Source: Naegleria gruberi
Taxonomy: Eukaryota
DNA: 64,000 nt
Direction: 5' to 3' (one strand)
Assembly: GCA_000004985.1 (NCBI GenBank)
Contig: GG738845.1
Positions 13,839 to 55,909 of the stretch are shown piece after piece; positions within the stretch are counted from its first letter, which is position 1, and each line of letters opens with the position of its first letter. The notes under the pieces are model-generated. The model was not told the origin of the DNA. It was given only the letters and a program-made list of their open reading frames with translations, and searched no databases. The translations under genes were made by a program, and so were the position numbers.

Positions 13839-16800
13839 ATGTCTGAACTGGAAGACCTTGATGAGGAACCAACAAACAACACAAGACCATCCTCATCACA
13901 TATTCCCCAAAGCAAGAACGAATTAACAACAGATTTTCCCAAAAGACCAAAAACATCTCCCTCCAGAAATGATGAAGGGGCAATTGAACAACAACAGGAA
14001 GAACGGTCGGAGGATGTGGATCAAACCATCACCAAAAGAAGGAAAAAAAGAAGGACGAGAAGGCTTTTCGATGATGAACAAGAAGAGCAACCAGTTCTTG
14101 AATCTGAGGTAAATCAAGTAATCCAAACCAACGAAACAGAGGAAAGGATTCCAGAAAGGAGTGAATTCCAACAAAATGAACATCCTACAGAAGAGCCAGT
14201 TCAAGATTATCTTGAAGCTGAACCAATCACAAAAAAGTTGATTGAGAAAGATATTAAACAAGAAGAAAAGATTGTAGAGAGAAAGTTTCCAACAGTTATA
14301 AAAAAAGAACAAGCCAAGAAAAATCAGAATGAATGCTTGACACAAATCTCGGAAATAAGACCTGTGGTTGAAGGAGTTATTAAACAAATTCAGATTAGAG
14401 TTAGAGAGCTAGGAAAGCTTCAAGAATTTTATTTGTCAAAACAAAAAACTAAAGAAGCAGAAGAATGTAAAAGCTTGGCAGAAAAATTGAAAACATCCAC
14501 CGAAAAACTGTCCCAAGAATATTCTTCCAAATATAGATACTTTGATCCTCAAGAGGAGGGAATATTTGCTGACAAAAAGCCATTCATGTTGGAAAAAGGA
14601 CAACATTTACTTGAACATAGACTTTTAAGGGAATCTAATGGATTAACAAAATTTTTTGATGAAAATGGACAACTCATGGTTCAAATGGATCCAACTGCAA
14701 AAGTATTCACAAAACCTGGAGAAAATGATTTTGACTTTATTGACAATAGAACAATATCTCTTAAACGGACAATACCAACAAGAAGTATTCGTTCAACAAC
14801 AGCAACAAAACACTACAAGATAGAAATAGATCTTAGAGAAGTCTTATTTGAAGACCACCCTTTAATGTGTGAGGAGGAAATATTAGCTAGAAAAATACAT
14901 GAAGCATTCAAAATGTATAAGGAATTGAAAGAAAATGACAAATATACATACTTCCATAAGAGATTATTAGCTTTGCAAACAGAACTAGATAGACTTAGAG
15001 GCAAAAAAGACAAGGCGGTAAAAAAAACAAACCCACTTGATGAATTAAGCTATCTCACAAAAGAAACAAAAGAGTTGGAAAGAGAAATGTCTGTTCTAAG
15101 GTCTGAAATACGACAAAATAGACAAGATTTGGAAAATGAGGAGCAAAAAGAAATAATGCTAGTAAATTCAGTGATTGGAAATTGGAATGCCCTTTGCAAA
15201 GTTAGATCTACCAACAGATATAACGTAACAAACGTTAAATTGGGATTTAGAACAATTCCTCAAAACAAGGAGGATGACAGTTTTAGGATACAATACCAAA
15301 TCGAACAAGAGTTACAAGAATTGGAAGAGGATATGAGATGGAGTTACATTCAAAAATTAATTGAATTCAGAGAGCAACTTATTCCAAAACAGGAGCAAGA
15401 GTTTTCTTCCCTATATTTGATAGCAAAGAGCTCTCCCAAACTTGAATATTTTGATAAAGAAGAAGAAAAAAAGAAAATACTGACACGAATAGAGAAAACA
15501 ACAAGATATCCTGGGGAACCAATTGTTGTTCCAGAAATTTTGAAAATGGAAATAACAAAAGAATCAGAATTACCACCCGTAAGTATTTGCTTAAAATATG
15601 AAATAACTCGATCAGATGGAGGTCGAAAGAAGGAAGCAAATTAGCATGCTCTCATACCATATTAATTTATTGGTAAATGGAAACTATGTCTGTAAAACTA
15701 CCAATCAACAACTAAGATCTGATTTCACAATTAATTTTAATGAAATTGTTTCTGTTAGCGTTTTTAAATGGCCAGAATCAATCAGCTTGCAGATTTCTCA
15801 ATCTGGATGGTTCGAAAAGCCGCTCACTAATGTTTTTGTCCCTGTTCCAGGTTTAGAAAGATCTGGTAAAACAGATACTGAAAGTGTAAAACAAATTTCA
15901 TTTACTTCCCCGGAACCACATGTTCCAGTTTGGGATCTTCAGGCAACAGGCTCCTTTCCTCCTTCAATATTTCAAATATTCAAACCTGTTCTCTCTCCCA
16001 GTCATCATACCTACGGAAGTATTAAACTCTCTATTTCTTGGGTAAAGCCATCCGAAGAACGGACAGTGGAAGCCCCAAAACCACCAGTCGAAAAAACAAA
16101 GAAGAATCTTCCAACTGCAAGAGACTTACTCAACCTGAAACAAATAACTTCTTGGATGGAAACAAACAACATTGATCCCAATGACCCAAGAAACACTGGA
16201 CTTCTTTCCATGTTGAATGAATTAGACAGAGACGATCTTTCTAGCAAAGGTTTTTATTTGGCTGAGCAAGATGAAGACCTATTCTTTTTCGAGGAATTTA
16301 ATAGTTCTTCTTTCCAAAGACGTCTCCATTTATTGAAATTGAGGGATGAAGTAAAAGGAAAGGTACCATTACCTATGATTTCTTTGAATTTAGATCATAT
16401 CCAACCAAGGAATGTTAAAAATTATGAGGAAAGGATCATCCAATCACTCTCCAACGAGGCAAGATTATCATCATACGTAAATCAAGTTAGAAATTATACA
16501 AATAATGTTGTAATGAAGAAAGCAAAGAGACTAGTGAAGACAAATATGGAGTAAGTTATTTGGAAAATTAATTTCCTTACAAATATTTCTAGTGTATCTC
16601 AATATGTTAGAGAGCCTCCACTCCCAGAATTCCACCATTCCATTGATGCCATAATTGAAGTATTTGAAGAATACCGACCTTTAAATCCAAAAAGAGTTCA
16701 AAAGGAAGTACCTCCTATTAATGAAATTAATCAATGCAATATACTTATCCAAATAACAAGAGGATACAACTTCCCAGTCAGGAAAGGGCACGATGATGAG

Positions 16801-18651
16801 ACCTATAGAAACTACAGGCAAGAGAGATTGAAAAATGCTAGTGAAATTGGATTAGAAATGCAAATGGGAACTCGTGTTGCAACAAATGTACCAACCAATA
16901 TCTATGATCACACAATAGCTAATGCTGCCACATTACAAAAAGGACCCCAAGATACAATTAATTATATCACCATGGCTAAAAACACTCAAGAGCAGGGAAT
17001 GCCAGATGTAAGTACTAACTTTGCATTCTTAATTATTTAATTTCAACAGAGATTGCTCTCATTCGTTGCTATTAACTTTGATGGAGATATTCAAAGAACA
17101 AAATCTGTGGAAGGTCCATTCCCTCAATTCAATCAAACCCTATCAATACCTCTAAAAACTGTAAATAATGACTATAGCCCAGAATCACTGAAATTAATTG
17201 ATAAGGAAATTTACTTTGATGTTTTTGATGAAATAACCGTTGAAGGCCTAAGAGACGAAAGAGATTACAATACCATAAATCAAAGAGCTGAATTTAAGTG
17301 GTTAGGCTCTTACTCAGTACCATTCTCTACTCTGTACCAAAACGGAAAAATAATTGGTACCTTTAGACTTAAAACACCTCCTCTCTATCTGGGCTATGGA
17401 AAATCTGTTAATGATCAGAACGCTTACACAGCCTTAACCGTCTGTATTACACTGGATCCTCCTTTGCCAAGACCAGAGAAAGTTGAAGATTTCATAATTA
17501 CTGGAGAGGGACCTGAAGTGTATTCTTACTGTCAGTGGTGGTCTAAAGTTGTGAGAAAGTCCAAATATGCAAAAACCAGGAATGTGAAATGTCTTGTTCC
17601 AAATATTGAAGGAAAGGCAACTTTACTTACAAGGTACATTACTCCACAAGACCCTCCTCCTGAATTACAGACAGCTTCTGAACTAGCAAGATTTGTATCC
17701 CTCATTCCTCTTTTAAACGATTCATTAACGTTTGACGCAGGAGATATTTGGATTGGATCCCAAGAGTTTTTAGATACAAGGGCTGGTGATTGGGAAGAAC
17801 ATTCAATTCTTCTGTGCAACTATTTCCTTAGTTTGGGTAAAACAACTTTCTTTGTTCTTGGAAAAGGTGTCCCAGAAGGAGATACTGCATATGTTCTTAC
17901 AGTTGAAACCAGCGCAACAATTACACATAACAATAACCATTCGTATCAGGAAAATAGAAAGTGTTTATTGTTGTGGAACTCAGTAACCGGAGAGAAATAT
18001 TCAGTAGATGATCCTCTTTGTCCCCTTCAAGAAATACACTTAATTGCATCCCAAACAAATATTTGGATTAATGTGCAAAAACATGCCCAGCCATCCATGA
18101 TGAAATTTGATCTTAATGATATTTCACTATTTTATCCTCTATATAACCCAACAAGAGATTCTAACAGGATGATTGCTAAAGAATGTTGCGATCAAAAAGG
18201 AAAGATTCAATATAAGAAACTACTATACAATAAGTGCTCTCCAAATAATAGCATAAGACTAGAACAAGATATTAGACGAGCAATTGAGGAAGGATTTTCT
18301 TTATGGAGACACAAAGCTACGATATGGGACAACTCTGTTAGCAAAACATTTAAAGAGCTTTTACAAAGTTTCGAAGCAAGCAAAAAGCTAGACCAAGCAC
18401 TAAGTGATGAAAACCAACAACAAGTTTTGGCCATTGTAAATGAATCAAGTGCAGTGAATGGTTTTCCCCTTAATTTTTGTTTCAAGGATATTGAGGAAAT
18501 TGTTACAGAAGTACGAAACACCATGGTATACGATACATATGAGCCGGATGTAAAGTTTGCACTAGCTGTGTATGTAGAGCCATATGCTAATGATATTTGT
18601 AGTGTGTGGGTTTACGTTGCATCAATTATCAACAAGAGAGGGTATTATTAA
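13839..18651 (+). CDS. Large K/E-rich coiled-coil + C2-domain protein, CC2D2A-like (ciliary transition-zone type); exons 13839-15578, 15616-16550, 16593-17007, 17050-18651
   Basis: Three introns join four ORF blocks in frame: GTAAGT...AG (37 nt), GTAAGT...AG (42 nt) and GTAAGT...AG (42 nt). The protein is about 1580 aa: a charged coiled-coil N-terminal half, a C2-like beta-sandwich segment (…YFDVFDEITVEGLRD…FKWLGSYSVPFSTLYQNGKIIGTFRLKTPP…), then a large C-terminal domain. Overall size and architecture match CC2D2A/MKS6. The identification is from memory. Confidence 0.55.
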
Positions 18652-20252
18652 TCATAATATCACTCCACTTCCCAGATAGGATAACATGCTTCAATCGGCA
18701 TAAAAATCTACTTATTTCTCCCATTTCATCTTTCCTGTGGTAGAAGAATGTGAAACAGTCTCCCAAGGAAACATCATTAATTCCCTCAGCCTCTTTAATA
18801 TCTGGAAGAGGAATTTTACAAAATCCAAACCTGTTTACTCTGTCACCAAGGGATAATTGTCCAAAATCGTTTCTCCCTTAAAAGAAATAATTATAATAGA
18901 GATTACAAAATAACAAACCTGAAAAATAAAACTCATTTCTATCTGTAATTAATATTGAACGAAAATTTCCACATTTGATAAATTTGATTTTCTCCTTGAA
19001 TTCTATTTTGTTTAAATATCCGCTTGTTAGCTCAGTACACTTTGAGACACCCAATTGTCCATACATATTATTCCCAAAGCTATATAATTCGTTAACTCGA
19101 TTAAGTATAAGTACATGTGAAGCTCCCACAGAAATCATGTCAATCCAACCAATATTAATATTAACGGGTGTAAAAGTATTTCTCTGAATACAGTCAGGAA
19201 ATCCAAGTTGTCCAAATGTATTTTCTAATTAATCTAATATTCAGTGTCATCACTAAAAATTGAAACAAACCTCCACAAGAATAAATTGTATTCTTTCTTG
19301 TTAAAATCACTGTATGAGAATGCCCAAATCCGAAATCCTTAACTGAGTCTGTAATATAATCTATATGGGTAAATGAAGGCACTATAGTGACATTTTGCAA
19401 TCCCAATTGTCCATTTTGATTATTTCCTGCAAGATATAATTTTCCAGATCTTGTTAGGAATCCAGTTTTATGAAGTCCACATTTAAGCAATATTATTTCT
19501 TCACAAAATTGATTGGCATTCGTGGGATGAAAAGTATTACATTCTATCAATTGACCAATCCCTAATTGACCAAACTCGTTATCTAAAAATTATTAACTAT
19601 AAACTTAATTTGAAATTTACCTCCACAACAATAAACTTGATTGTCCAATGTCAATAAAGCAGAATGATACGATTTACTGGCTATTGCTTTAATGGACAGA
19701 GATTTCACTCCCATAACTTGAATAAATTCGAGAACACTTTCGTTGTGACCTAAAAGTTTCTAAAAATCCAAAAGAAAATATATTTACCTAAACCTATTAT
19801 TCACTTTTGTCAAAAACATTAAAATAATAATACAAACCTAATTGCCCACTGTAATTCCTTTGAAATTTAAATAAAATTCAAGAAATTATTACTCACCATC
19901 CTAAAAAGAATGTCACCTGGCAATTTATAATAAATTATAACATACCACACACCCACAATTCATTCCCAAATGTTAATATCATAGAGTGGCTTGCTCCTAG
20001 TTCTATCTGTTTAATTTCCTTTAAAATGTTTTTAGCTGTTTCTTCTACTGTAGAAATCCACTTGGTACTATTGTTGTTATTGTTTGATATTGATAATTGT
20101 CCATAATAGTTTCTTCCACAACAAAGTACTTTATATTTCCTCTGTTCATTCATTTGTTTTGCATCTTCATCACAAGATGAGAATAAAACCCTGTTCGTAA
20201 ATATTTTATTATCATCAAGTTGCAAATGATTTTCCTCTTGATAATTGTTCAT
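18629..20252 (-). CDS. RCC1-repeat protein, multi-exon; exon blocks around 20252-19976, a micro-exon near 19826-19845, 19550-19194, 19138-18878 and 18868-18629
   Basis: Repeated blade motifs: VLCCGRNYYGQLS, ASHSMILTFGNELWVCG(M)NYSGQLGL (via the micro-exon), LAGNNQNGQLGLQ, FGFGHSHTVILTRKNTIYSCGG, FGNNMYGQLGV and GRNDFGQLSLGD. It is interrupted by several short introns. Exact boundaries and the 3' end are uncertain; the last exon may overlap the convergent upstream gene by about 20 nt. Confidence 0.5.
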
Positions 20253-20266
20253 TTTTTATTATCAAT

Positions 20267-21586
20267 TTATTTTCTAAATCCGAACCAGCCACCAGAAGCT
20301 TGTTTCTTGTCTTCAACAGGTTGTTGTTGTTGTTGAGCTTTCTTAATGTTTTGTAATTTTGTAATAAAATCACGAGCTATTTGTTGTGCTGGTTTGTCTC
20401 TGTTTCCGTATTCATTTAAAATTGTCCTCACATCAATTTTACCAGATTTACTGGCTACAAGCTCCAAGAATGGTACTAAATCTGTCAGTAATCTGTCGGA
20501 TGTATCTCCTTTCCATGGCTCAACAACAAGTGTATTTTCAGGTTGCTTACTATAGGCTTCAGCACGGTGGTCAATCAAAACAATCCTTTCGATAGGTCTG
20601 TTCATCAATGACAGATCCTTAATAGTTTTACCATTCTCCATAGTTGTAGAATCCTTGAAGAGTTTGTGAGCATATTGATTTGGATCAAGTCTTTCAATAA
20701 TTTGTTGAACAGATGTCATATAATTTTCACTGAAAAATACCAATTCATAGTATTGACTAATTGTCTTGAGGAAATTATCCAATCCAGGACGTTTTTGTGT
20801 TTTCCAACCTGTACGTGGTGTGTAATAAGTATGAATCAAAAGGTCTTCGACTGCTAAAATCAAAACAGGTTTTTGAGGAGATCCTTCTGCAAGATCAGGA
20901 AGGAGTTTAGAATTGGTTGGTTTGGTTAATGGTGCCATGAGTTCATCAATTTTCTCTTTCAAATTATCAAAGCTAAATCCTATTTCGGAGTATAATCCAT
21001 ACATTGCATAGAGTCCCATCATCATAAAGAAGGGAAGTGAATATTTTACACCATATGCATGCCAGTTTGGTTTTGTACGAATTTTTTCAGTAGCTTGTTG
21101 GTCTCCCATATCCTCATAGTCTGCACCAGTTGTTTTCTTTTTTTCATTTGTCTTTTGTTCTTGTTGTGAATCCTTTTTTTCATTTGTCTTTTTTTCTTTC
21201 TTTGGTTCTTCTGCTTTCTTTTCTTCTTCAGCTGTTGAAGCTTCTTCTTGTTCCTCGGCTTCTTCTGGTTGTGGTGGAGGAGGATTGTTCTTTCTTTCCT
21301 CAGCCTTCATCTTTTTAATTCTTTCGGCTTTTTCTCTCAAATTATAATCATCTTCATTGGATGGTTTTGAACCAACACGAAGAAGAACTTTAGTAGACGA
21401 AGTGAAGGCTCTGTTTTGTTCCAAAGGTTGGAAAGAAAGGAATTTGTTTGTATTAATGTGGTTAAGAATTGATAAGTACATCACTAATAATTGTGAATAA
21501 GTGTAATATTAAAAACATACATTGCTCCTTCCTGGAAAGCTGTCTTCCCGTAGCTTTGGTGAGGGCAGGTAATAAATGTTTGAGCA
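20267..21586 (-). CDS. TIM50: Mitochondrial import inner-membrane translocase subunit TIM50; exons 21586-21520 and 21482-20267
   Basis: FCP1-homology domain PVLILAVEDLLIHTYYTPRTGWKTQKRPGLDNFLKTISQYYELVFFSENYMTSVQQIIERLDP...VLIDHRAEAYSKQPENTLVVEPWKGDTSDRLLTDLVPFLE is a strong TIM50 match. An upstream 67-nt exon MLKHLLPALTKATGRQLSRKEQ(-) looks like a presequence and joins through a 37-nt GTATGT...TAG intron. Confidence 0.8.
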
Positions 21587-21721: not shown

Positions 21722-23384
21722 TTAATGATCTAAAATTTTACTTTTCAATAATTGCTTCTTAGAGAATGATGTTAATTGTCTTACATGGCTGTCCAAAGCA
21801 TCAGAAAATTTGTTGTAAATAGTATAGGAGACATTGTTTTCCTTGCATACCTTTTTAACAATTGGTAAAATTTTTGGGTACAACCATGGATTAATACCAG
21901 GGAATAAGTGATGAATAACTTGGTAGTTCAAAAAACCAGAAAGATATGTCCAGAGGTAACTGTCATGACAATAATCAATGCAGGTAGTGACTTGAATAGC
22001 AGCCCAATCCAAATCGTCATTTCCACCATTGCCTTCATTGCTGTTATCGACCATCTCATTAATAGCATTTGATGGCCAAGCACATTTTTCAGAGATATGA
22101 TTAATTTGAGAAAGGAAGCCAAACATTACTCCAGCAACGATTTCAGTAGCAATAAAGGTCAAAACAGTTTCCATAACATTACGACCAATTAAACCCCCTG
22201 TCTTGTTAAATAAAAAGATTGGTAAAACTATTCTATAAATAAAGAAGAATATCTTACTTCCATAGAAATGGAAAGTAGTAGAGCTAAATGTGGGTGTGGC
22301 AAATGCAATACCTTCACTGACATGTCTTGTCCAATAATGGATAAAATCAACAATTTGCATGTAAAAGATCAATGAAGCATACAAGAAAGGCAATGATCCA
22401 AAAGAACCAGTCTTTGCCATGATATCTACAGGAACAGATGTATAATCCTTTGGTTCAGAATACATTTTAGCAATCAAATCAACCTTTTCATTTTTTGAAC
22501 AAGTGGCCTTAGTTGCTGAAGATGGAGTATTATCAATGTGTCTGTTCCAAGTGTAGACACCAACATCAGGATCAATCTCACTCATGTTAGTATAACTGTT
22601 TTGATAATTAGAAAAGAAAAATACCTAATACATACACGTGATGACCAACATTATGTCTAATGGTCCAAACATAAAAGGATTGGCCCAAAACATATGATCC
22701 AAAATTACCAATCAATCTCCACACTGTTGGAAAATCAGTGAAAGAACCATGACCTAAATCATGAACTACATGAACCAATGCAAGATGATGGAATAAACCA
22801 GCTAATAAACCCAATAAAATTGCAACTCCCAAATTGATTGATGGAAAATATTGAGAGAGAATTTGGCAAGTTAATAGACCTGTGAAAATAAAAATTGCAT
22901 TGCAAAGTCTAAGGCCTGAAACTCTTCTTATGTTCTTTTTGAATCCACTACTTTCATTCTTAATTAATTCATCTCTAATACGTTGTTTCATAATTTCATA
23001 AATATTTGTTTTGTTTGTTGATTGCTTTGGGCCAGAAAGAGGTGATTGGAAAGTGAATTTAATTGCAGCATCATTTGGTAGTTCATCTTGATTAAGAGGA
23101 AGCTTTCCTACTTTGGCACTTTCAACATCGAACTCTCCCACATACTTGATAGAACCTCCAGTGCCTTTGAGGTAGGATCTTGCAATTGATTCGGATGATA
23201 AATGGTATGATTCAAACAAGGCAGTAGCATCACGGGCGCAAGCAGATTCTATCATCTCACGACCACCAGGGTGCTTATCGGCAAACTCCGTCAAATCATA
23301 AACTTTATCGTAGAGAACTGTCCATAAACGAGTGTTCTTTACTCCATCATGCTCTTGAAGTTGTTCGAGTGTAATTTTACTCAT
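21722..23384 (-). CDS. Front-end (delta-5/delta-6-type) fatty-acid desaturase with N-terminal cytochrome b5 domain; exons 23384-22636 and 22595-21722
   Basis: The b5 motif is ...LTEFADKHPGGREMIE. His boxes are HDLGH, HNVGHH and a third QVIHHLFP (QxxHH, the front-end hallmark). A 40-nt GTATGT...CAG intron joins ...HNVGHH-V-YTNMSEIDPDV in frame. Confidence 0.85.
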
Positions 23385-23864
23385 TTTTTTTTTGATGTTT
23401 CACAATGCGAAATGTGAAAATATATTGTAATTAAATTGAATTGAAGCCTTTTCGGTTATAAGATAACTTTGGAGGAGTCCACACTTGTTATTCAACACCT
23501 GACTTTGTTTTTTTTGAAAAGGTCAACATTATAATTCATCGTAATGAATGGGGAGGTTTCATTAACTAGAGAGTGATGACTCGAGTAATCATATGCCATA
23601 TTTTGATTACAATGTTTTGAAAACTAAATAGTAAGGTTTGTTTTAAGGAATTTAGACAAGTTTGGTCGTTTCCTCTAACCCGTTCTGCTCTTTCATTAAT
23701 AATTTCATTAAATGTTGCTAATACCATTAAAAAATCTAATGTGTTATTATTATATGTAATAGGCCTGTAAATCATGCATAATTAATTGTCAAGTATTGTT
23801 TGCCATCTATGATAGTTGATTGTTTCATCATATCCATTTTACTTTTATTAAAAAAATATTAAAA

Positions 23865-26243
23865 ATGAAAGGGTTCAGTCTCTCTCTCCCTCTTGCTAAA
23901 GTTGTTACGGTTGGCGAGGAGGTTGATAACCAAAATGTACAACCTACAACAATTACACAACAAAATTCACAAATAGAACCTAATATTGCTTCTGTTCCTT
24001 TGATATCAAAATTGAACATCTCTTTAAATATGTCAAATACTTCAGCACAAAACAATATTTCTGAAGATGAAGGCATGATACAAAAACCAACTGATTCTTT
24101 TTTTTCCTCTATATCTATTGATAACGAACCAGTAGAAATTGAAAACATCGCTAAACTTTCATCATCTTCATCACCATCACAATACACTAGTAATATTAAA
24201 ATTTATGAATGTTTTGATGATTCTCCTTTTGGTACTGATAGCAACAAACCTTGGAAGAAAGATTTTAAATGTAGAGCATTTCCTCTTTTGAATGGAAAAG
24301 ATTCAAAATTTAAAGTATCATCATGCTATATTGTCATACATTTATTCCAACACCTAGATCAACAAACCAAGAACCGTGATGAGACCAGGGATGAAAATAA
24401 CTTTAAAATGATAGAGCAATTATTCACTTGGGGAACTATTGGCTCATTTAAAGATCAAAGTTATCATGATCTGTCATTCACTCCTCGTGGCTTGGAACAT
24501 CCATTTTCTAGTTCAAGAATTGATCAAAACAACAGGTTTAACTTTGATTTATACGTATGGTATGGTAAAGAATCAACCGATTTTGTAAAGAGTAGAACTA
24601 TTGAAAAAGCTTTAAAATTAGAATCCCAGTTACAACAACCATCAATTGTAGAGAGTTTATTCACATCCGGAAAACCTCAATCTTTTGAAGATTTAATCAA
24701 ATCTGGTAATGCTACTTATCCTTCTAACGTGCCATCAATTTCAATATCAAAAAACCATCACTTACTTTCCCGAATTAGATCTTTAATGGTAGGAGTTAAT
24801 AATATCAACAAATGTAAATTTTTGTTTGATGAGTTATCTACAACACCACCCGATGAAAATTCCAATGAGAAACTCAACAGTTTGCTACAATTACGAAAGC
24901 GACCAATGGCTGGTGTTACTAATCATGAGGATTCACTAGAATCTCCAAGAAAAAAAGAGAGAACCCAACTAAGTCCTATCAATACTCGTGAAGTTGAACA
25001 TGTCGAGGAACCCAAAGTAATGAGTGGAAGAGAATTAGCAAAAGCCTGCCATTATGTTTGTTCTAAAATTACTGATTTCCTATTTCTTGGAAGCGCTGCT
25101 GTAGCACAAGACAAGAAGAAATTAAATGATAACGGAATTACTCATATAATTAATGCAGCTGCTAGTGTTTATTGTGATAATTATTTCCCTAATGATTTTA
25201 CTTACTATTCTCTCAGCTTATATGATGATCCTAACGAATCTATCATTGGTTCTTTTTATGGAGTTATAGAATTTATTGAAAATGCAATCAAGAAAGGCGG
25301 TAAAATTTATGTACATTGTCAAATGGGAGTTTCCAGATCATGCTGTTTATGTATTTCATATATGATGTGGAAATATAGAATGAACTTTAATCAAGCACTA
25401 GAGGATGTGAAAACAAAGAGAGCATGTTGCTCTCCTAATGCTGGTTTTTTAGTACAACTTACTCAATGGGAAACAATACTAGGATTGAGTGATAAGTCAA
25501 AAAAAGAACCAAATGCATATCTCTATCGCATTAGTCCTCTAAATAACTTTTATGCCATTCACAAAGAATTAGTTCCAAAGCTATGTCACAATACTAGACA
25601 TTTAGATTCAAGAACATGTTTCTTGCTTCAATCAAAGAGTCATTTGTTCCTTTGGGTTGGATCACAAAGTACAAACGAACTCTTAGAAGCTGCCAACAAG
25701 TTTATTGAGATATTGAGATCATACTCTCCTAATTCTTTGAATGCATGCATTCAAATGCAAGAAGGTCAAGAAAATGATGAATTCAACCAAATTTTAAATT
25801 CTTTAGAAATTGATACTAGGCGTGCCCCTACCGAATATCAAGATTTAAAGTATCTTCAAATGACACAAGAGGATGCTATGGAGTTAATGAATCAAATTAA
25901 AACAACATCTGGCGAACCTGTTGATCCTGAAACTGAAAAGGAAATGAAAAATTACAAAACTGGAACTTTGTACAGTTATGAAGATAGATCATTTAGCGAG
26001 TTTGATTATTTTGATAGTGAGGATATTTTAGATGATATGTGTTATGTTATGCTGCCTGAAAATGAAGATCACATTCTTGTAATGATTGGTTATGATGTAG
26101 ATCTTGGTGATGACAGTTTGGATGATAGGGGAGAAGAAATTGGAGAGCTCTTTATTGCATGGAAAAAACTACCTGAAAGTACTTCCATTAGGGTTTGTGA
26201 AGAGGATGATCCTGATTTCTTTAGGTACTTTAAGAATGGTTAA
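23865..26243 (+). CDS. Dual-specificity protein phosphatase with a C-terminal gelsolin-like domain
   Basis: Catalytic loop VHCQMGVSRSCCLCISYMM (HCxxGxxRS). The downstream segment ...HLDSRTCFLLQSKSHLFLWVGSQSTNELLEAANKFIEIL resembles a gelsolin-repeat core (LDsxDCFiLD..g.iyvWvG..a...E). True ATG at 23865; the track's 23820 start is a non-ATG. Confidence 0.7.
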   Translation: MKGFSLSLPLAKVVTVGEEVDNQNVQPTTITQQNSQIEPNIASVPLISKLNISLNMSNTSAQNNISEDEGMIQKPTDSFFSSISIDNEPVEIENIAKLSSSSSPSQYTSNIKIYECFDDSPFGTDSNKPWKKDFKCRAFPLLNGKDSKFKVSSCYIVIHLFQHLDQQTKNRDETRDENNFKMIEQLFTWGTIGSFKDQSYHDLSFTPRGLEHPFSSSRIDQNNRFNFDLYVWYGKESTDFVKSRTIEKALKLESQLQQPSIVESLFTSGKPQSFEDLIKSGNATYPSNVPSISISKNHHLLSRIRSLMVGVNNINKCKFLFDELSTTPPDENSNEKLNSLLQLRKRPMAGVTNHEDSLESPRKKERTQLSPINTREVEHVEEPKVMSGRELAKACHYVCSKITDFLFLGSAAVAQDKKKLNDNGITHIINAAASVYCDNYFPNDFTYYSLSLYDDPNESIIGSFYGVIEFIENAIKKGGKIYVHCQMGVSRSCCLCISYMMWKYRMNFNQALEDVKTKRACCSPNAGFLVQLTQWETILGLSDKSKKEPNAYLYRISPLNNFYAIHKELVPKLCHNTRHLDSRTCFLLQSKSHLFLWVGSQSTNELLEAANKFIEILRSYSPNSLNACIQMQEGQENDEFNQILNSLEIDTRRAPTEYQDLKYLQMTQEDAMELMNQIKTTSGEPVDPETEKEMKNYKTGTLYSYEDRSFSEFDYFDSEDILDDMCYVMLPENEDHILVMIGYDVDLGDDSLDDRGEEIGELFIAWKKLPESTSIRVCEEDDPDFFRYFKNG

Positions 26244-37264: not shown

Positions 37265-37390
37265 CAATGGTTTTTTAATTTATTGTTGTAACGTTTTAAA
37301 ATAGTTCCAACTATTTCTAAATTGTAATAATCTTTTACAAGAATCTCATTAAATAACTCATAGTCAGTCTGTAAATGTTGAAAAATCCAC

Positions 37391-38070: not shown

Positions 38071-38167
38071 TGCTATTGTTGTGCTATTTTTTTTTTGAAT
38101 TTTATCAATAAATTTGAAGTTGTACCAATTCCCTCCAATTTTAAATACGTTTTTAATTAATCAAAAA

Positions 38168-40429: not shown

Positions 40430-41772
40430 TTTATTGATCCGCTTTGATAATTTGGGAAGGATTGGAAATTCTCATCATCAACATAAACATTTTCATCAAT
40501 TTCAGTAGGTTTCCTTCTCTTATTCTTTTTAATATTAGTCATTAAAGTTTGAATTCTTTCTTCTTCATTTTCTTCAGAAGGATCAAATACTCTGTCAATT
40601 GCAATTATATGAGCAGAAGGAGAAGAGGTCACATTGCCTGCATTATTATTCGCTTCTGTTTCAAGAGTAATTTGCTCATAAACTGATCTATTCAAATTGC
40701 CATCTAGGAATGTAAAATATAATACTGGTCCAAAAAGGGCAAAATAAAGTACCCTAGATGACATTGTAAAACAAATTCCAACGCTTTGACATGTTAGTAA
40801 TAGTACACCTCCAACGAAATTTACAGAATGTAGTGTCATTAAAAATAATATGTACAAATAAAATGATTTCCTCTGAGGAACTCTATCCTTCATAAATCCT
40901 ATACACGGTAAAATGATAATAACAATATACATAATGGTAAATAATCCTCTCACAATAGTTTCTTGTAGGGCTGATTCGAGAACATTTGTTGTCATAATTG
41001 ATGGAAAACCTGTTTCATTATAGAAAGGAAATATGAACATTACTGAAACAGCAGCTGCATTATCTAAAACAGAGACTAGTCCAGCAATAATTGCACTTCT
41101 AACTAAAACTTTAAGATTACTCAGTGATGCTATCAATTTTCTTGGAGAGAAATGATGCATCATATATACTACAACACAAAGTTCAATAAATTCCATCAAT
41201 AGATTAAGTATCGAGAGGCATACCTTTGTTGCAATATCCAACTCATTTGATGGAATGTTTTGAGTAGATATTAAAGAGATATGATTATTAGGATGTGGTG
41301 GTACAGGTTGGGAATTATTTACATTGTACTGATACAAGGGTGAGGTTTGTAAATTTTCTTCAATATAGAAAATATTTTCTCCAATTAATGCAACGCTTGC
41401 TGTTGACAAACACGTGACTAAATGCACTACACATACACACCATACAAATGTATAAAGGGCTGGCAGTAGTAAACTATCCGTTTTCTTTAAAATTTTAACG
41501 GAAATTTTTAATTTAAATAATAAATATAATATAAATATCAAGTTTGGAATTAATGTAATAAAATAATATAAATCTAATCCACCTAAAATTCTTAAAAACA
41601 TAATATCAACACAAAATTCCGATGTTCCTTGGTTGTTGTTGCTAGGAATATTATTAAAAAAAGGACAAACTGGAAGAAAATGATTTCCCGTTGAATGTTT
41701 ATGATGATGATTGTGGTGAGAGTGATTACTTGCAAAAACAAGACCTCCACCTACAGTCTTGTCGATAAGCAT
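40426..41772 (-). CDS. Multi-pass (about 7 TM) membrane protein, hypothetical
   Basis: 448 aa with seven hydrophobic helices, an N-terminal His-rich segment and an acidic C-terminal tail. Its stop TAG (minus, 40426-40428) overlaps the + gene's stop TAA (40427-40429). Confidence 0.55.
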   Translation of the reverse strand: MLIDKTVGGGLVFASNHSHHNHHHKHSTGNHFLPVCPFFNNIPSNNNQGTSEFCVDIMFLRILGGLDLYYFITLIPNLIFILYLLFKLKISVKILKKTDSLLLPALYTFVWCVCVVHLVTCLSTASVALIGENIFYIEENLQTSPLYQYNVNNSQPVPPHPNNHISLISTQNIPSNELDIATKVCLSILNLLMEFIELCVVVYMMHHFSPRKLIASLSNLKVLVRSAIIAGLVSVLDNAAAVSVMFIFPFYNETGFPSIMTTNVLESALQETIVRGLFTIMYIVIIILPCIGFMKDRVPQRKSFYLYILFLMTLHSVNFVGGVLLLTCQSVGICFTMSSRVLYFALFGPVLYFTFLDGNLNRSVYEQITLETEANNNAGNVTSSPSAHIIAIDRVFDPSEENEEERIQTLMTNIKKNKRRKPTEIDENVYVDDENFQSFPNYQSGSIN

Positions 41773-46847: not shown

Positions 46848-47201
46848 TTACTTTTCTAATATGAAATCAGAATTTACGAAAGCATGATATTCATCAAACA
46901 ACTTGGTGCAATCTTTTCCTAAAATTTCATCCAAAATATCAACCCCTCCTGGGTGATGTAGTAAAAAATCTGTTATATCATAAACATATCCTCGTAAAAT
47001 TACCCAAGCATCTGATCTGGTATTGTGTTTTACAATTTCACTGTTTGTTATTTGTTTAGTTTTGTTTTGAGTAGTTGTGGGCATTTTCATGGCTTGTCTG
47101 GACCAATGCATTAAACCAAAACCACTTGGAAGAGGTACTTTTTGGCGAGTTCTTGTTGTATTGCTGGTAGATGGCAATGAGTGAGGTTCCGAAGAAGACA
47201 T
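46848..47201 (-). CDS. Cytochrome b5-like heme-binding domain protein (Ncb5or/CYB5R4 N-terminal-like)
   Basis: ...VPLPSGFGLMHWSRQ...EIVKHNTRSDAWVILRGYVYDITDFLLHHPGGVDILDEILGKDCTKLFDEYHAFVNSDFIL matches the PG.SLMDW + b5 (HPGG) arrangement. It terminates without a reductase domain. Confidence 0.7.
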   Translation of the reverse strand: MSSSEPHSLPSTSNTTRTRQKVPLPSGFGLMHWSRQAMKMPTTTQNKTKQITNSEIVKHNTRSDAWVILRGYVYDITDFLLHHPGGVDILDEILGKDCTKLFDEYHAFVNSDFILEK

Positions 47202-47257: not shown

Positions 47258-47834
47258 ATGTTTAAAATTGTGGATGGTAGACTTTTGGTGGACATTAAAT
47301 TATATTCGGAACATATTATTCAAGATTTAATATTATATTTTTCGTATGAGAGAATTTTAATCGGATTTATTCTGTTATTTATTTCATATTATATTATCAA
47401 AAAGATTGTAAAGAGAAGAACACTTGTTGGCAAATGTTGGAATTGTGGAGAAACATTTTATTTAACAAAAAGACAAGTGAATTTGGGATGGAAATGTCCA
47501 ACGAGGAATTGTCACTCTTTTAATAGTGGTCCTTCTTCTAATTCACAATCCTTANNNNNNNNNNNNNNNNNNNNNNNNNNNNNNNNNNNNNNNNNNNNNN
47601 NNNNTTTCTATTTATTCCTTCTTTTTGATGAACTTGTTACATATTATACTATTATTGATTGGTGGTGAAAAGTGTAAAAGTTTATTTAGAATGTCAATAG
47701 AACAAGCTGAATTCAAACTCTATATTACACAATTAGTATTCTTATTGGCAACAATTTTTGGATGTACAATATGTGGTCACAGTATTGGATTTTGTGTATG
47801 TATTCAACTTGTTGATTTTTACTCAAATTTATAA
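47258..47834 (+). CDS. Small TM + CxxC protein interrupted by a gap (hypothetical)
   Basis: MFKIVDGRLL..., a TM helix, then CWNCGETFY...CPTRNC, then a 50-N gap, then ...ICGHSIGFCVC...*. Frame continuity across the gap is unknown. Confidence 0.3.
47555..47604. other. Assembly gap (50 N)
   Basis: A run of n characters. Confidence 1.
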
Positions 47835-48661: not shown

Positions 48662-51600
48662 TTACACTTTAAGGTTTGCTTCAAAGGCCTTAATAAGGTC
48701 ATCAGCCAAATCTTTGATAAGCATAGAGCTTTCAGTTTCTCTAATGCGGAAGATTACAGAATAAAGTTCGGTTGTCATAATCTTAGGATTTTCACACCAT
48801 TTGTATAAGCTTTGCACAATCTTAAGTTGATCAGATCGTACTTTTTTGTCAGAATGGGGTTGAAGAAGGGCATGTTTTACAACTTTGGTAATGAACTCGT
48901 TAGATTGACTTAAAGCCTTGCTTAATTTGACAGAGCTTGATATTATACTAAGAAGAGGAGACGAAACAAAACGAGAGGGTGCGCTACAAAACACGTCTAC
49001 TAGTTTGTTAATATTCTCTGATTTGGCAAGAACAGATTCTACACGTTCCTTGTCTTCATTTAACCATTTGCTCAAAGACTCCATAGCTTTAAGTTGCCAA
49101 TTTTGTACTCCTAATACTTTGATGTAGAACTCTAACATTTTGCTATCTTTCAACTCTTTTCTTACGCTTGGAACGTTCACTCTTACAATTTCACATAACA
49201 TGTCAACAGCAAAGGTTTTTAAAATACTATCATTACTGATAAAATATTGTATCTCAGGAACAATACCAGCTTCCACAGCAATGATTTGACGTTTTTTGTT
49301 AAAGCGAGTAAGGTGGAGTATGGCTGTTATCATTTGGTTACCTATGGAAGCATCTCTTTCGGCTAATATTTTTACAAGGACTGGAATACCATCAGCTTTT
49401 TCAAATGATTCAAATGTGACAGGATAGGTAGCGAGATTTTTTGTTACAATAGCTAGGCTTAGCTTGAATTCTTTCTGATCCTCATTGTTTGTATCGAGAG
49501 TAGAGAAAGATTGTAAAATTCTCTTGAGAGAAGCAACTTCTGCCATATGTGCTCTGACTACTGAATCCATATTTGAGAATAGCAAGAGAAGCGATATTGT
49601 CTTGTCCAAATACTTTTTGGTAACCACATCATTGGTGTTAAGAGAAAATCTTTTCACAAGTAATAACAAAACTTCGCTTAGTCTTGGCATTAACCCGTTT
49701 TTGGAGAATAATCTGCAAAAATCATTCTTTGGAGTTTTGATAGCTTCTTGAGGTAAATCAAAAACTTGTTCAATATTCTCTATTGTTTCGTAAACTAATT
49801 CTATACCATCTTCAAGACGATCATTGTCATGGGCCAACAAGTCAACAAGTACTCTAATTCCTTGACATCCAATAAACATTCTCACTGTAAAATGGCTAGT
49901 CTTGAAAATACTTCTAATAAACGATCCAGCTTGATATCTAACAGCATATGGATAGTTTTTGTGGCAAAATTGCATAATATTTGGAAGTATACCAACTAAA
50001 CACAAAGTCTCTTTAAAGTGAATACTCTCTTGAAACCAGGCAATATCATCCTCTAGAATGAATTGGTTGATGAGCTTTAGGGCTGCCTCTATAGTTTTGT
50101 ATGATGAAGAATACTGTTGAGACATTGAGAGAAGTTCTACAAATGGTATTGGAACAACTGATTTCACTCTACACTTTAATCTAGCGAACTCTGTAAGTAT
50201 GGAAATAAGTTTTTCACATTGCACAACAAACAAGTCTTCTGTCATTACATCCTGTTGAAATTTTTCCAAAAGCATGTTAAAATCCTTCTCTGGTTTTAAT
50301 AGTTCATCATCATTTTGTTTGTCCATATCATCAAAAATATCTTCAAATGTATCTTGGAAGAATAGATCATCCTCAATTGCTTCCTCTGCTCTTCCTTGAA
50401 CTTTTTGCATTTTTGCAAATAAATCTTCAGTAGAATTCTTGTCTCCTTTTCCATCCCATGGATCCAAATCATCCTCCCATTCATCATCGTCATCTTCAAC
50501 ATAGATTGATAAATTTTTCTTACTATTTCCTCCTGGAAAGAATGGTTTTGGAAGGAATTTTTCTTTATCCTTTGGAGCTATGTTAACCATATTTGAGAAA
50601 GGATTTACATCGTCATCATCATCAAAAGGATTATCCTCTCTAGGAGATTTAAGCTTGTTTCCGATTTTTAAAGCAAGTCCATCATCATCATCTCCAAAAT
50701 CAAAATTATCCTCTTCTTCATCTTCATTATATTTTTCGAGTTGTGTTGTCTTGATTTCGCCTTCCTTTTCTTTGGTTGTAACTGGTGTTGGTTGTGTTTG
50801 CTTTTTTCCTTGTAAAATCCAAGGATGTTGTAACAGTTGTTCAGCTGTTTTTCTTGATGTTGGATGCTTTTTAAAACAATCCATTAAAAAGTCTTCACAT
50901 TCCGCTGAGATACCTGTTGGTAGTGGAGGATGTTGATCTTGCACAATTCTATACAATGCAGGCATGGCATCCAAATTAAAATATGGAGGTTCTCCATTTA
51001 AAAGTTCAATAACAGTAGCACCCAAACTCCAAATATCAGAAGCAGGTGTGGAAGGGTTCATTTCAATAATTTCGGGAGCCACTATTAAAGGTTAAAATAA
51101 AAGACGATCAAAAGTTTTACTTACTCCAATACGGTGTACCAACAGGATTGTCATCCACATCTGCTAAAGTTGCAGCCACACCACTATGAAAAGTTATTAC
51201 AAAGGAATTAAATAGTTTTCACTTACAAGTCTGCTAGTTTAATGTCACCTTCCTTTGTTGTTAGAATGTTTGCACCTTTAATATCTCTGTGAATAACACC
51301 TTCAGAGTGTAGGTATTGCAAACCTTCCAATACTTGAGCAACATATTTGCAAACAACATTTTCCTTCATATTACCATATTTTTGTACAATATCCAACAAT
51401 GAACCAGTTTCCACAAACTCAATCACAATATATAATTTACTCTTAGAGGGTATATGATCCACATATCTTACTATTCTATTATGTTTTAACTTTTTCAACA
51501 AATTGATTTCGGTCTGCACATAGAGATCGGATCATGATAATAATAATTAAAACGTACATGAATTGTTTCTATTTGTTCTTTTGAACATTTCTTGACCGTT

Positions 51601-51805
51601 ATTCTTTTTACAGCAACAAATTCACCAGTGTCCGTATTGTAGGCTTTATAAACAACGCCAAAACCACCTCTACCTAATACCTCTCCCAATCTCTTTTAAT
51701 AACACTATTAACAACATACTAATATCATTAACCTACATATTTGTTGCCTATAGTTTTAACCTTGTCCTTCTTTTTCTTTGATTTCTTATCTGTCTCACCC
51801 ACCAT
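48662..51805 (-). CDS. Cdc7(S. pombe)/Cdc15/SepH-type serine/threonine kinase with long C-terminal helical (ARM/HEAT-like) repeats; exons 51805-51737, 51692-51558, 51513-51227, 51183-51125, 51081-48662
   Basis: Spliced N-terminus [23 protein letters not shown]|[17 protein letters not shown]...AVKRI...EQIETIH|[17 protein letters not shown]...[25 protein letters not shown]|[19 protein letters not shown]|MAPEIIEM...[21 protein letters not shown]...HPPLP. Identity to the Cdc7/SepH kinase-domain landmarks is very high. Four introns of 44, 44, 43 and 43 nt (GTAGGT/GTACGT/GTAAGT...AG) all keep frame. Confidence 0.85.
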
Positions 51806-51891
51806 TTTATTAGAGCAGTTGGTTCCGGACAGATGAAACCGTCAATTTTTTCTAATTAAAAAATTTAATTGTTATTATTATTTACAAATTA

Positions 51892-53376
51892 TTATTCTTC
51901 ATCGTTATCTTGTGGTTCGTCCTTCTTTGGAGGGATAAACTTTTTCATGTCTTCTATTGTTGGATCTAATTGTTGGCATAATTTCACTTCTTCATATTCG
52001 TTCAATATTGGAAGTAAGAACTGTGGAGAGAATGCGCCACCCTTATAACCGTAACCAATGTAAACATTGGAAAATACCATATCTTTCGAGTTCCTCTTGT
52101 AACCAACCGTAAAGGCACCATTCCATAATCTATTTGAAAGACAAATAACCTCATTATCAAGACTTTGATGTGATGATCTTATTGTCCAATTTTCTTTTGA
52201 AATTGAGGATAATGGTTTAGGTATTCTTTCAACTGTTTTCTTCAATTGATCAAAGTCTGGGTTTTCTTTTTCCTCAGAAGTCCAGAAGAATGAACATCTT
52301 CCTTGTTTTCTTAGTATCGGTGGAAGAAGGTTAACCCAACTGTTATGTTTAGAAATATCTAGCTTTGCCAATTGCTCTTCAAATTCAGTATTTTGTTCAA
52401 TAGCAGCAAGGGTTTCATTTGCAATAGTTAAATTAGGTGGAAGATTCAATTCTGGATCTACCTCGTCTTCATCTGCGCTAAGCTTCATTCTTCCCAATGG
52501 AGCTAGGATGCAAGAGTGAGAGATTCTTGCAATCTGACATCTCAATAGTTCCATTTCTGTGCCTTTGAATGGAGGGTGTGACAAAACTTGTTGGTCCAAT
52601 CTTCCAGTAAAAAACTTTTTGATTTTTCTGCTTCTGTTAATGCTCTCTGGGTTTGAATCTGGAAGTCTTGTCCAAGTATCAGCATTTCCGCCAACATTAT
52701 TTGATACATAGTAAATGTATTTGTTTGTTCCATCAGTTTCGGGTGGAATTCCATTTTCCTTTTTTTCATTTTCATCATTGTCTTGTTCTGGTTCATCAGT
52801 CTTCTTAGTTTGTTCTGTCTCTAGTATGTAATAATTTTTCTCTATTCCCAGTATTTTGCCAAAGAAACGAATGGAATCTATGTCATTGTTTGATGAAACA
52901 ACTGATTTCATTGAAACCAATAACCGGATGAGTTCCATTTCTCCAATTCCAATACCTACATCCCTGAATAATTTTCCTTCATAGAGAATATCAGACATTT
53001 TGAGTGTATCCAATCCTTCCTCCCCTTCTTCTGTGTTGTCTACATCTTCATCTGTTTTTTTCTTTGGCTTTATTGGTGGATTTATAAGGGCAAGGTATTG
53101 TTCGGATCTCTTGAAATCCTTTTCCAAAATATTTTCATCATCTACTCCCATCCATGGTTTGTACAGTTTTGTTAAACGTTCAAAGGCTGATCTTTCCTTT
53201 GCAGGAACGAAGCTTCCTTCCTTTACTAAATTACAAAATTGTTCAATTTTAGAGAATGGATTTTTAGGCTTTTCTTGAAGTAATCTGAAAATTACTTCTG
53301 AAAAGAAATCCTCAATCGTAATTTTTTCCTTTTCCTCACCAAGATCCGTACATTTAACCTTTGATACAAAAGACAT
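51892..53376 (-). CDS. Radial spoke head protein 4/6-like (RSP4/RSP6/RSPH4A family)
   Basis: The N-terminal ...ITIEDFFSEVIFRLLQEKPKNPFSKIEQFCNLVK matches the remembered RSP4/6 N-terminal pattern (LYDHLVEVLLKIL.ENPKDA...FEQFS..VK). Its size (494 aa) and acidic C-terminus fit. Assignment from memory. Confidence 0.45.
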   Translation of the reverse strand: MSFVSKVKCTDLGEEKEKITIEDFFSEVIFRLLQEKPKNPFSKIEQFCNLVKEGSFVPAKERSAFERLTKLYKPWMGVDDENILEKDFKRSEQYLALINPPIKPKKKTDEDVDNTEEGEEGLDTLKMSDILYEGKLFRDVGIGIGEMELIRLLVSMKSVVSSNNDIDSIRFFGKILGIEKNYYILETEQTKKTDEPEQDNDENEKKENGIPPETDGTNKYIYYVSNNVGGNADTWTRLPDSNPESINRSRKIKKFFTGRLDQQVLSHPPFKGTEMELLRCQIARISHSCILAPLGRMKLSADEDEVDPELNLPPNLTIANETLAAIEQNTEFEEQLAKLDISKHNSWVNLLPPILRKQGRCSFFWTSEEKENPDFDQLKKTVERIPKPLSSISKENWTIRSSHQSLDNEVICLSNRLWNGAFTVGYKRNSKDMVFSNVYIGYGYKGGAFSPQFLLPILNEYEEVKLCQQLDPTIEDMKKFIPPKKDEPQDNDEE

Positions 53377-53408
53377 TTTTTTTGTTGTTTACTGATGAAT
53401 ATGTACAA

Positions 53409-53448
53409 TTTTGGCGGGAAAAAATCGTTTATCCAATTACCGCCAAAT
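53409..53448. promoter_or_regulatory. E2F-like sites TTTTGGCGGGAAAAAA and (reverse) ATTTGGCGGTA in a 116-nt divergent promoter
   Basis: They lie between the ATG at 53376 (-) and the ATG at 53493 (+). TTTGGCGGGAAA is a canonical E2F element. Confidence 0.35.
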
Positions 53449-53492
53449 CTACATACAAATCAGTTTAGATAAAAAATACATTAGATTAAAAA

Positions 53493-55909
53493 ATGGACGT
53501 ACTCAAGGAAAAGCAATTCATGATAACCTCGGAAAGGTGGCAATTATTGGAGAAGGAAAGATTGGAGATGTAAGTGTAATCAATTAATGTAATACTTATT
53601 ATTCAGACTAAGGAAGAGAGAATTAATTGAACACAGGATTGATTTACGATATCACTCAGAGGAAGGATTGGAGCAACATAGATCTGATTATTATAAGAGA
53701 CTTTTGAAAAAGGTGGAAGACAATTTGGAAAAGAGTAAAATTAGGAACAAACTTTTGGTGAACAAAGCAGATGATCTTCTACAAAGCGTCTCAGTATCAA
53801 ACTCAAACAACCTTGTAAAGTCAAAAGTCAAGTTAGAGGTTGCAAAGGTAAGGAATAATTTCTCAAATTTCTTACACTCAAAAGAAACAATTTTTACAAT
53901 CCTTCCAGGACAGAGTAAAGGAATATGAGGAATTGGGGAGACACCAAAAACTCAAACAAATCAGAAAGACAGAAGAGGAAATTGAAATTGAGAGAAGGAA
54001 ATTGAGGGAGTCTACATTGGAATGGGAAAGAGAAAAGAAAGTTAATAATGATCTTCAAGAAAAAATTAAAGAGCTCATTGTAACAAAAGAAATATCAAAA
54101 AAAGAGGCTATTGAGAGGGAGGCAGAAAGAAAGGCTATTCTTGAAGGAGAGAGAAAAATCCAAAGAGCTGTTGAACAAACATCCGTTGATGCGTCAAAAA
54201 GATATTTGGAGAAAGAAGAAAAGAGGAAATTAGAAGCTGTTGACGGTAAAGATATTAAATACAAAGGTAAGAAGAAACTGGAAACATCTTTAATTTTAAC
54301 AACCTTAACAGGTCTTGTCGAAGAAGTGTACGAAGGAAAAATTGGAATTGCTGCTAGAGAAAAATTTGTGTCTCAAGAATCGTTTGAAATACAATCTCAA
54401 CAAGTTCAAAAACCTGTTGATGAATTATACTATAATGACGGATATAGCAGCTTTGAAGAAAAGCATAATCCAAACAGTTTTGCAAAATTTAAAGAATGGC
54501 AGAAAAAACAAACTGTTGACAAGAAGAAACCCGAAATGTCTCAAACACAAAAGCCAAAACATCAAACCCAGCAACAAACCCCAATTACTCAACCAATGAG
54601 GGAAAATTGTGTTGAAAAAAATTATAGACAGGAAGAGTTCAAAGAAATTAAGCCAGCACGAGAAGATTACAAAGAAATTAAGCACGAGGTCAGGGAGGAG
54701 GAAATAAAACCAACTCCTGTGTCCCAGACGACAAAGGACGTGCTTGGAGATAGCATTGGATCAATTGAAGATAGGGAATCTGAGAGTGATGACATCACCA
54801 AATCATTCTTGGAATCTATCAAAAAACCAATGTTGGTTTCAGCTTTGAGTAAGAAGGATGACAAGACTTCTCCCATCTCATCAATGATAAAACCATCAAG
54901 CCCAAAGAACATAGTTATCACTCCAGAAGAAACAAAGAATAATAACTTTGTTAAAATTCAGTCTCCTAAATCCTTTACAAGTACTTCACCACAACAAAAT
55001 AGAACAAACCAAACCTTTGCAAACCAACAAGCAACCTCAATCTCCCCAACAAAATCTACACCCCCTCCAAATCCTGTTATTGAAAAAAAGAAGGAAATTG
55101 AAACTAAAAAAGATCCAGAAAAAGATCCAGTAGAACACAAGGAAGGTGATTCAAAAACGAAAAAGATCAAAAGTTTCTTTTCTGCAGCATTCAAATTTAA
55201 TGGGAAGAAGAAGGAAGAAGAAAAATCAGAGGAGACTGAATCATCCTCTGAAAATGATTCAAATGCACAAGACAAAGAAGGAGACAATATGGTCCAACAA
55301 AGAGTCAAAAAGTTAAACCAATCAAAACTGGTTACAACTCTGTCTTCTTACATGCTAGAGTTAGAAAATCACCTTAAAGAACAAAAAGAAAGGTACAACA
55401 AAATGTCCTTAAACTACAAGCTGGAAAATAAGGAGAGTCAAGAAACGTTGGTATACTCAAACTGCCCAAAGATAAATGGGAAAAATAGAGTACTGAATAT
55501 TGAATCATCCAAGAAAGAAATTGAGCCAGTCATGAAGTGCGTGGCTTGTTTAGATATAATACAGTATCTCCCATCACCATTAATAAGTGTTGAAATATTG
55601 GATGAATATTTAGAAAAAGACACTGAGTATGAAATTGAACAACTTTCGAAGTATTTGAATTCATTTGGCTTAGAAGTTTGGCGATTAATAATAACACATG
55701 TTTCCAACTTGTCAAAGTTGGAACCCAAGTGGAGAGAGCCCTTACTGAAAGTGTTTTCTGAATCAATTTGCAAAACCCTTCCACCAAGTAAGAACACAAC
55801 TGAAGCTAAAAACAAAACAAAGACCCTGCTGAAAACTTATATTTCAACCAAAAAATCCAACACTACTATTCCTGACACAACAACACTCGAACAACCAAAA
55901 AAGAAGTAA
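53493..55909 (+). CDS. E/K-rich coiled-coil protein (hypothetical, possibly axonemal); exons 53493-53569, 53607-53847, 53909-55909
   Basis: The first exon MDVLKEKQFMITSERWQLLEKERLE ends with a split codon (at|GTAAGT), then a 37-nt intron, then exon 2 ...ILRKRELIEHRIDLRYHSEEGLEQHRSDYYKRLL... A 61-nt GTAAGG...CAG intron leads into the large exon. All junctions keep frame. Confidence 0.55.

Follow-up and report, generated by a model that had tools for sequence, protein, structure and literature searches.

Flagellar genes, a Cdc15/SepH-type kinase and a predicted run of micro-exons in a gene-dense stretch of DNA assigned to Naegleria gruberi NEG-M

The 64,000 nucleotides (nt) of DNA analysed here, referred to throughout as the window, almost certainly derive from a nuclear chromosome of Naegleria gruberi (Heterolobosea, Discoba), strain NEG-M, as a gene-dense part of its published genome, for which PMC3144413 and PMC9928731 cite Fritz-Laylin et al. 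2010 (Cell 140:631). The window carries a CC2D2A/MKS6 orthologue, a radial spoke head gene of the RSP4/6 type, a gene of the TMEM17 family and a protein kinase of the Cdc15/SepH type. A first-pass annotation, filed under positions 13839-55909 and made from the letters and a list of ORFs with their translations, had argued for a non-animal eukaryote that has flagella or cilia and a compact genome, and against a dictyostelid. The source identified here bears out that deduction.

The assignment is carried by protein identity. Seven of the 15 open reading frames (ORFs) that were queried are full-length, exact matches to annotated N. gruberi NEG-M proteins, and they are spread between 9.2 and 64 kb of the window. 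All seven proteins are encoded on a single contig of 1,555,553 bp; they reach 1206 amino acids (aa) in length, and their UniProt accessions follow the order of the window, from D2UXH1 to D2UXJ1. A taxonomy look-up places N. gruberi in Discoba; Heterolobosea. The exact NEG-M matches are:

EFC50284, Spt20-like protein
EFC50634, DNA polymerase alpha
EFC50289 cluster
EFC50637, Mic1-domain protein
EFC50291
EFC50640 / XP_002683384.1 / NAEGRDRAFT_44954, radial spoke protein (RSP)
EFC50642, PIP5K

The general make-up of the window is that of a compact genome. Coding sequence occupies approximately 74% of it, at about one gene per 2.2 kb, and long ORFs crowd both strands of AT-rich DNA. Intergenic spacers are very short all along the window; the 3′ ends of the convergent CC2D2A (plus strand) and RCC1 (minus strand) coding regions overlap by 23 nt (18629-18651), and the ORF at 38114-40429 (plus strand) overlaps that at 40426-41772 (minus strand) by 4 nt. 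The proportion of guanine and cytosine (GC) is 0.328 for the whole window, 0.338 for coding sequence and 0.299 for the remainder. NEG-M is a Sanger assembly of 40.9 Mb with a reported GC content of 35% (PMC9928731). The 16 introns that could be delimited are 37-46 nt long (median 42.5), close to the 40 nt of the first-pass annotation, and its reading of a standard genetic code was also correct, as genes terminate with all three standard stops (TAA 21, TGA 3, TAG 3) and the longest ORF runs for 1206 codons (table 11/standard). Other compositional claims were wide of the mark: coding GC had been put at roughly 27% and measures 33.8%, and the poly-N/Q inserts that had been described are negligible: 16,461 aa contain three N or Q runs of at least four residues, and the longest has five. 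With runs so few and short, the proposed Dictyostelium-like composition was overstated. Scans for tRNA genes and Rfam families across the window gave no match. Three runs of N interrupt the sequence as assembly gaps, typical of the scaffold gaps of draft assemblies such as the Sanger assembly of NEG-M (PMC9928731):

7886-8286, assembly gap of 401 nt
37019-37068, assembly gap of 50 nt
47555-47604, assembly gap of 50 nt

Could the window derive from another species or strain of Naegleria, or from another heterolobosean? Some of its ORFs have no exact counterpart in the protein collection, as such a source would predict, but seven NEG-M entries, up to 1206 aa long, are matched from end to end without a difference, the nearest other species are merely 48-81% identical, and the N runs fit draft scaffold gaps of the Sanger NEG-M type. 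We therefore regard this alternative as highly improbable. A standard-code ciliate or a zoosporic fungus (chytrid), both named as candidates by the first-pass annotation, would fit the flagellar genes, standard code, short introns and low GC of the window, and chytrid and other fungal proteins do occur among the matches to the kinase. However, the exact matches belong to Naegleria proteins, heteroloboseans supply all of the nearest relatives of the RSP, kinase and CC2D2A genes (N. fowleri, N. lovaniensis, Willaertia, Acrasis and Percolomonas), and fungal and other matches are far weaker than the heterolobosean ones, leaving this origin a vanishingly small probability. The best RSP matches and the exact Naegleria protein identities rule out the two named candidate lineages, and only the catch-all ‘another compact protist’ of the first-pass list has survived, in the shape of a heterolobosean. 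Best-match taxonomy leads to Naegleria and its relatives, and not to an aciliate lineage.

Some considerations weigh against our interpretation of the window as NEG-M DNA with the gene functions proposed below. The strain is identified from exact protein matches, several ORFs have no exact match among the annotated models, and the functions of the proteins in the window are deduced from orthology only. For the inexact ORFs, the most likely explanation is a different choice of starts or introns in the published gene models.

The flagellar genes and the kinase were modelled as follows:

13839-18651, plus strand, CC2D2A/MKS6 orthologue of 1563 aa (exons 13839-15578, 15616-16550, 16593-17007 and 17050-18651)
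51892-53376, minus strand, RSP4/6 gene (RSPH4A/6A family), single exon, 494 aa
4256-5098, plus strand, TMEM17/TMEM216/TMEM80-family gene of 267 aa (exons 4256-4514 and 4554-5098)
48662-51805, minus strand, Cdc15 / Cdc7(pombe) / SepH / MAP3K-epsilon-type kinase of 989 aa (exons 51805-51737, 51692-51558, 51513-51227, 51183-51125 and 51081-48662)

The CC2D2A gene contains three GT..AG introns that can be read directly from the sequence (15579-15615, 16551-16592 and 17008-17049; 37, 42 and 42 nt), and splicing yields one ORF of 1563 aa with a single terminal stop. In the spliced protein, Pfam recognizes the CC2D2A-specific N-terminal C2 domain PF15625 at residues 558-732 (E 1.7e-46, profile positions 1-174 of 176), a CEP76-type peptidase-like domain (PF24656, E 5.3e-32) and a CEP76_C domain (PF24652, E 4.7e-14), so that the CC2D2A-like gene proposed at these positions by the first-pass annotation passes the profile search. 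The central PKC-type C2 domain gave no Pfam C2 match at E <= 0.001; residues 1-230 of an exon 4 query do align with animal CC2D2A in the region of this domain. An orthologue in N. lovaniensis shares 74% identity and the same domain arrangement.

More distant relatives of CC2D2A were sought in an exhaustive search with exon 4, which returned 339 representatives at E <= 1e-30, many of them 1300-1700 aa long and matched at their C-terminal end. Four animal matches were checked by name, and all were ‘coiled-coil and C2 domain-containing protein 2A’ and not CEP76. Exon 4 is 35-39% identical to these animal proteins across their C-terminal ~520 residues (E 1e-79 to 1e-84); the animal proteins are 1600-1700 aa long, and the alignment stops at their C-terminus. 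Proteins of Willaertia, Chromosphaera and Prymnesium rank above them. Zhang and Aravind (PMC3495828) reported CC2D2A, CEP76 and related C2/TGL proteins from every major ciliated lineage, heteroloboseans among them, in a data set that contained N. gruberi.

The RSP4/6 gene, also proposed by the first-pass annotation, was equally well supported by profile search, with a near-full Radial_spoke match (Pfam PF04712, E 3.3e-82, profile positions 10-491 of 493). The protein is 100% identical to XP_002683384.1 / NAEGRDRAFT_44954, followed by proteins of N. fowleri (64%) and Willaertia magna (48%). Its best solved relatives in the PDB are RSPH4A (8j07, 7dmp), RSPH6A, and the flagellar radial spoke protein 6 and 4 chains (7jr9, 7jtk). 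The closest named or solved relatives are, in other words, RSPH4A/6A/RSP4/RSP6, and not RSP9 or other spoke proteins.

The TMEM17-family gene is absent from the first-pass annotation; it lies outside 13839-55909, approximately 9 kb upstream of CC2D2A. It has a 39-nt GT..AG intron read from the sequence, and its product matches the whole profile of PF09799, Transmemb_17 (positions 1-107 of 107, E 9.7e-25), which we take to be the family of the transition-zone proteins TMEM17, TMEM80 and TMEM216. The presence of this gene strengthens the ciliary signal of the window.

The occurrence of the TMEM17-like, CC2D2A and RSP4/6 genes within 50 kb raises the idea of a functional, co-regulated cluster as opposed to a chance arrangement. 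Two genes of the MKS-module type (4256-5098 and 13839-18651) are separated by only ~9 kb, a third flagellar gene occupies the same 64 kb, and three flagellar genes among about 30 compare with roughly one expected by a rough estimate. Against this, six to seven unrelated genes (exportin-like, Spt20-like and others) lie between the flagellar genes, and the clustering was noticed post hoc. Comparison of the window with two loci of other Naegleria species shows no conservation of gene order: at the CC2D2A locus of N. lovaniensis, the genes called within 10 kb include none with PF09799, and at the RSP4/6 locus of N. fowleri the neighbourhood is entirely different, with no Cdc15-type kinase nearby. 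The flagellar genes are probably not a functional cluster, and we give co-regulation little credence.

The kinase gene has four introns (44, 44, 43 and 43 nt), and the spliced ORF contains one stop. A complete Pkinase domain (positions 1-263 of 263, E 7.5e-78) occupies the N-terminus of the protein, and the C-terminal ~700 residues show a weak ARM_ARMC5 match that falls below the Pfam cutoff (26.5 versus 79.9 bits); the same domain is precomputed on nearly all of the top relatives. By name, these relatives come from N. fowleri (81% identity), Willaertia, Acrasis, Percolomonas and dictyostelids, and further matches include plant ‘MAP3K epsilon’, fungal ‘SepH’ and ‘cell division control’ proteins and a ‘Mitotic Exit Network’ kinase of Balamuthia. 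The family named by the first-pass annotation, Cdc7(pombe)/Cdc15/SepH, is thereby confirmed. The search scored 8000 word-sharing candidates, and among the best 120 matches (at least 499 bits), which include plants, fungi, amoebozoans and the ichthyosporean Chromosphaera, there were no animal proteins. This fits the absence of the family from Metazoa assumed in the first-pass annotation, but does not prove it. There is disagreement among published accounts about the orthology of Cdc15 and Hippo/MST (PMC7761452, PMC4576864).

Naegleria amoebae form basal bodies and flagella de novo when they turn into flagellates (PMC3144413), and the presence of flagellar genes in the genome of an amoeba would be explained by this transient biflagellate state, in which both basal bodies and 9+2 axonemes are built de novo. 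Our data are consistent with a model, based on orthology, in which the RSP4/6 protein would form part of the radial spoke head, in contact with the central pair, and CC2D2A and the TMEM17-family protein would belong to the MKS module of the transition zone, gating the flagellar compartment. The kinase would most likely stand at the top of an NDR-MOB cascade of the MEN/SIN/Hippo-like kind that controls mitotic exit or cytokinesis. The isovaleryl-CoA dehydrogenase, TIM50-like, ATPase and other genes described below are ordinary neighbours.

The first-pass annotation had also counted two RCC1-repeat genes among the ciliary content of the window. Only one is present:

18629-20252, minus strand, RCC1-repeat gene with seven repeats, 443 aa, eight-exon spliced model (exons 20252-19946, 19900-19897, 19857-19838, 19793-19788, 19749-19621, 19582-19271, 19224-18919 and 18876-18629)

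A six-frame motif scan located seven GQLG/GQLS motifs in order on the minus strand, all within this one protein, and the same scan, together with Pfam searches of the other long ORFs, revealed no second RCC1 gene in the window. Pfam assigns WD40_RLD (E 1.7e-72), RCC1 and RCC1_2 to the protein. Its ciliary status could not be upheld either, as RCC1 repeats are not specific to cilia and the PDB matches to RPGR (127 bits), HERC1 (124) and UVR8 (119) are practically equal, with no discrimination between subfamilies. An RCC1-domain gene (locus coordinates 15173-17119) adjoins CC2D2A in N. lovaniensis, and another (locus coordinates 8488-9925) adjoins RSP4/6 in N. fowleri. The window gene is orthologous to neither of them: the former is 24-29% identical to it, and the latter gave no tblastn match. 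RCC1-like genes seem to be abundant in Naegleria, and because both of these comparison loci hold unrelated RCC1-domain genes, RCC1 repeats are uninformative on cilia.

The only mildly unusual item in the window is found in the predicted structure of this RCC1 gene. Its second repeat, ‘WVCGWNYSGQLGLGHNESV’, is restored by three consecutive predicted micro-exons of 4, 20 and 6 nt (19897-19900, 19838-19857 and 19788-19793), flanked by introns of 45, 39, 44 and 38 nt, all within ~200 nt. The 4-nt exon is needed to keep the reading frame; the 6-nt exon could alternatively be skipped within a single 88-nt intron. We lean, by a narrow margin, towards the predicted run being real, and so towards a case of extreme micro-exon definition in a protist whose introns are very short. 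If so, these micro-exons are likely to be a trap for public gene models.

Other genes to which an identity could be given include three singled out by the first-pass annotation (the ATPase, isovaleryl-CoA dehydrogenase and TIM50):

56379-60006, minus strand, type IIC P-type ATPase (Na,K/H,K-ATPase alpha-like) of 1194 aa (exons 60006-57663 and 57619-56379)
2948-4207, plus strand, isovaleryl-CoA dehydrogenase (IVD), mitochondrial-type, 419 aa, with all three ACAD domains (Pfam)
20267-21484, minus strand, TIM50-like NIF/FCP1-type phosphatase-domain protein (Pfam NIF, E 3.6e-35)
21722-23384, minus strand, cytochrome-b5-fused fatty-acid desaturase, two ORFs with an intron between them (Pfam)
23820-26243, plus strand, dual-specificity phosphatase domain with gelsolin repeat, 807 aa (Pfam)
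26998-29823, plus strand, RBR (RING-IBR-RING) E3 ligase with leucine-rich repeats (Pfam)
37174-38070, minus strand, Fcf1 ORF
46848-47201, minus strand, separate small cytochrome-b5-domain gene (Pfam)
61005-63992, minus strand, PIP5K, kinase domain preceded by an EF-hand pair (Pfam)

An ATPase of the Na,K type is indeed present. The gene contains one 43-nt intron, and its product scores 773 bits against Na,K-ATPase alpha in the PDB, 735 against H,K-ATPase and 334 against SERCA. The description of this protein as strikingly animal-like was less apt, as its identity to the solved Na,K-ATPase alpha subunit 8jbk is 46% over 846 aligned positions. Every IIC-type chain among its PDB matches, presumably all animal proteins, is named Na,K- or H,K-ATPase, which partly accounts for the impression. 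The IVD had likewise been called animal-like. The enzyme itself is well supported by its domains, and its PDB matches are led by 4o5m (602 bits, 71% identity) and 4kto (590 bits), which we take to be alphaproteobacterial enzymes, ahead of human IVD (555 bits, 64%); since it is closer to 4o5m than to human IVD, the animal-like look reflects the slow evolution of a mitochondrial enzyme. Support for the TIM50-like gene is at the level of the NIF domain.

Several of the other genes combine domains in ways worth recording. The domain combinations of the PIP5K and the RBR ligase are somewhat unusual, and the phosphatase-gelsolin architecture at 23820-26243 recalls plant MKP1. The first N run (7886-8286) breaks an exportin-like gene, with an Xpo1 domain at 5653-6213 and ORFs extending to 9166, and the second (37019-37068) comes to within ~100 nt of the Fcf1 ORF, on its low-coordinate side. 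Long Lys/Glu-rich ORFs of coiled-coil appearance at 12422-13774, 38114-40429 and 53933-55909 (plus strand) had no Pfam match; the last of these ends exactly at the end coordinate of the first-pass annotation and is not among the genes named there.

The N. gruberi sequence and its flagellar, transition-zone and MEN-type genes are already in the literature, and nothing in the gene content of the window is new. Our analysis carries little biological weight, and its useful outcome is methodological. Gene content, in the form of ciliary genes and a kinase family with no animal protein among its best 120 matches here, correctly placed an anonymous window as that of a flagellated non-animal protist, and by-eye estimates of composition (GC and homopolymer runs) and impressions of ‘animal-like’ sequence were unreliable.

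Comparison with known systems places each of the main genes within a familiar family. The CC2D2A/MKS6 protein is of a length comparable to that of its animal counterparts (1563 aa versus ~1600-1700 aa) and has the same domain order, with an N-terminal C2 domain followed by the TGL/CEP76-type peptidase-like domain and then the C-terminal domain. It differs in its N-terminal 550 residues, which are low-complexity or coiled-coil and lack detectable similarity to the animal proteins; Pfam did not detect the central PKC-type C2 domain, although exon 4 aligns with animal CC2D2A in this region. The RSP4/6 protein has the full-length Radial_spoke domain in common with RSPH4A/RSPH6A and with RSP4/RSP6 (7jr9, 7jtk), and its best solved matches are spoke-head subunits in axoneme structures; however, the mammalian RSPH4A/6A proteins are longer (~716 aa versus 494 aa) and identity is only 25-35%.

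The kinase has the organization of Cdc15 of Saccharomyces cerevisiae, Cdc7 of Schizosaccharomyces pombe, SepH of Aspergillus, plant MAP3K-epsilon and SepA of Dictyostelium, in which an N-terminal STE-type kinase domain precedes a long ARM-like C-terminal region; the fungal and plant Cdc15/SepH/MAP3K-epsilon members are longer, at 1300-1500 aa compared with 989 aa for the Naegleria protein. The ATPase resembles the animal Na,K-/H,K-ATPase alpha subunits (P-type IIC), with 46% identity over ~850 residues and a score more than twice that of SERCA, and differs from them by an N-terminal extension of ~150 aa. The spliced CC2D2A, kinase and RCC1 models presented here were not recovered as exact annotated products of the public NEG-M annotation, whose models may differ from ours in detail. 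In composition and gene density the window agrees with the NEG-M genome, with no substantive difference between the two.

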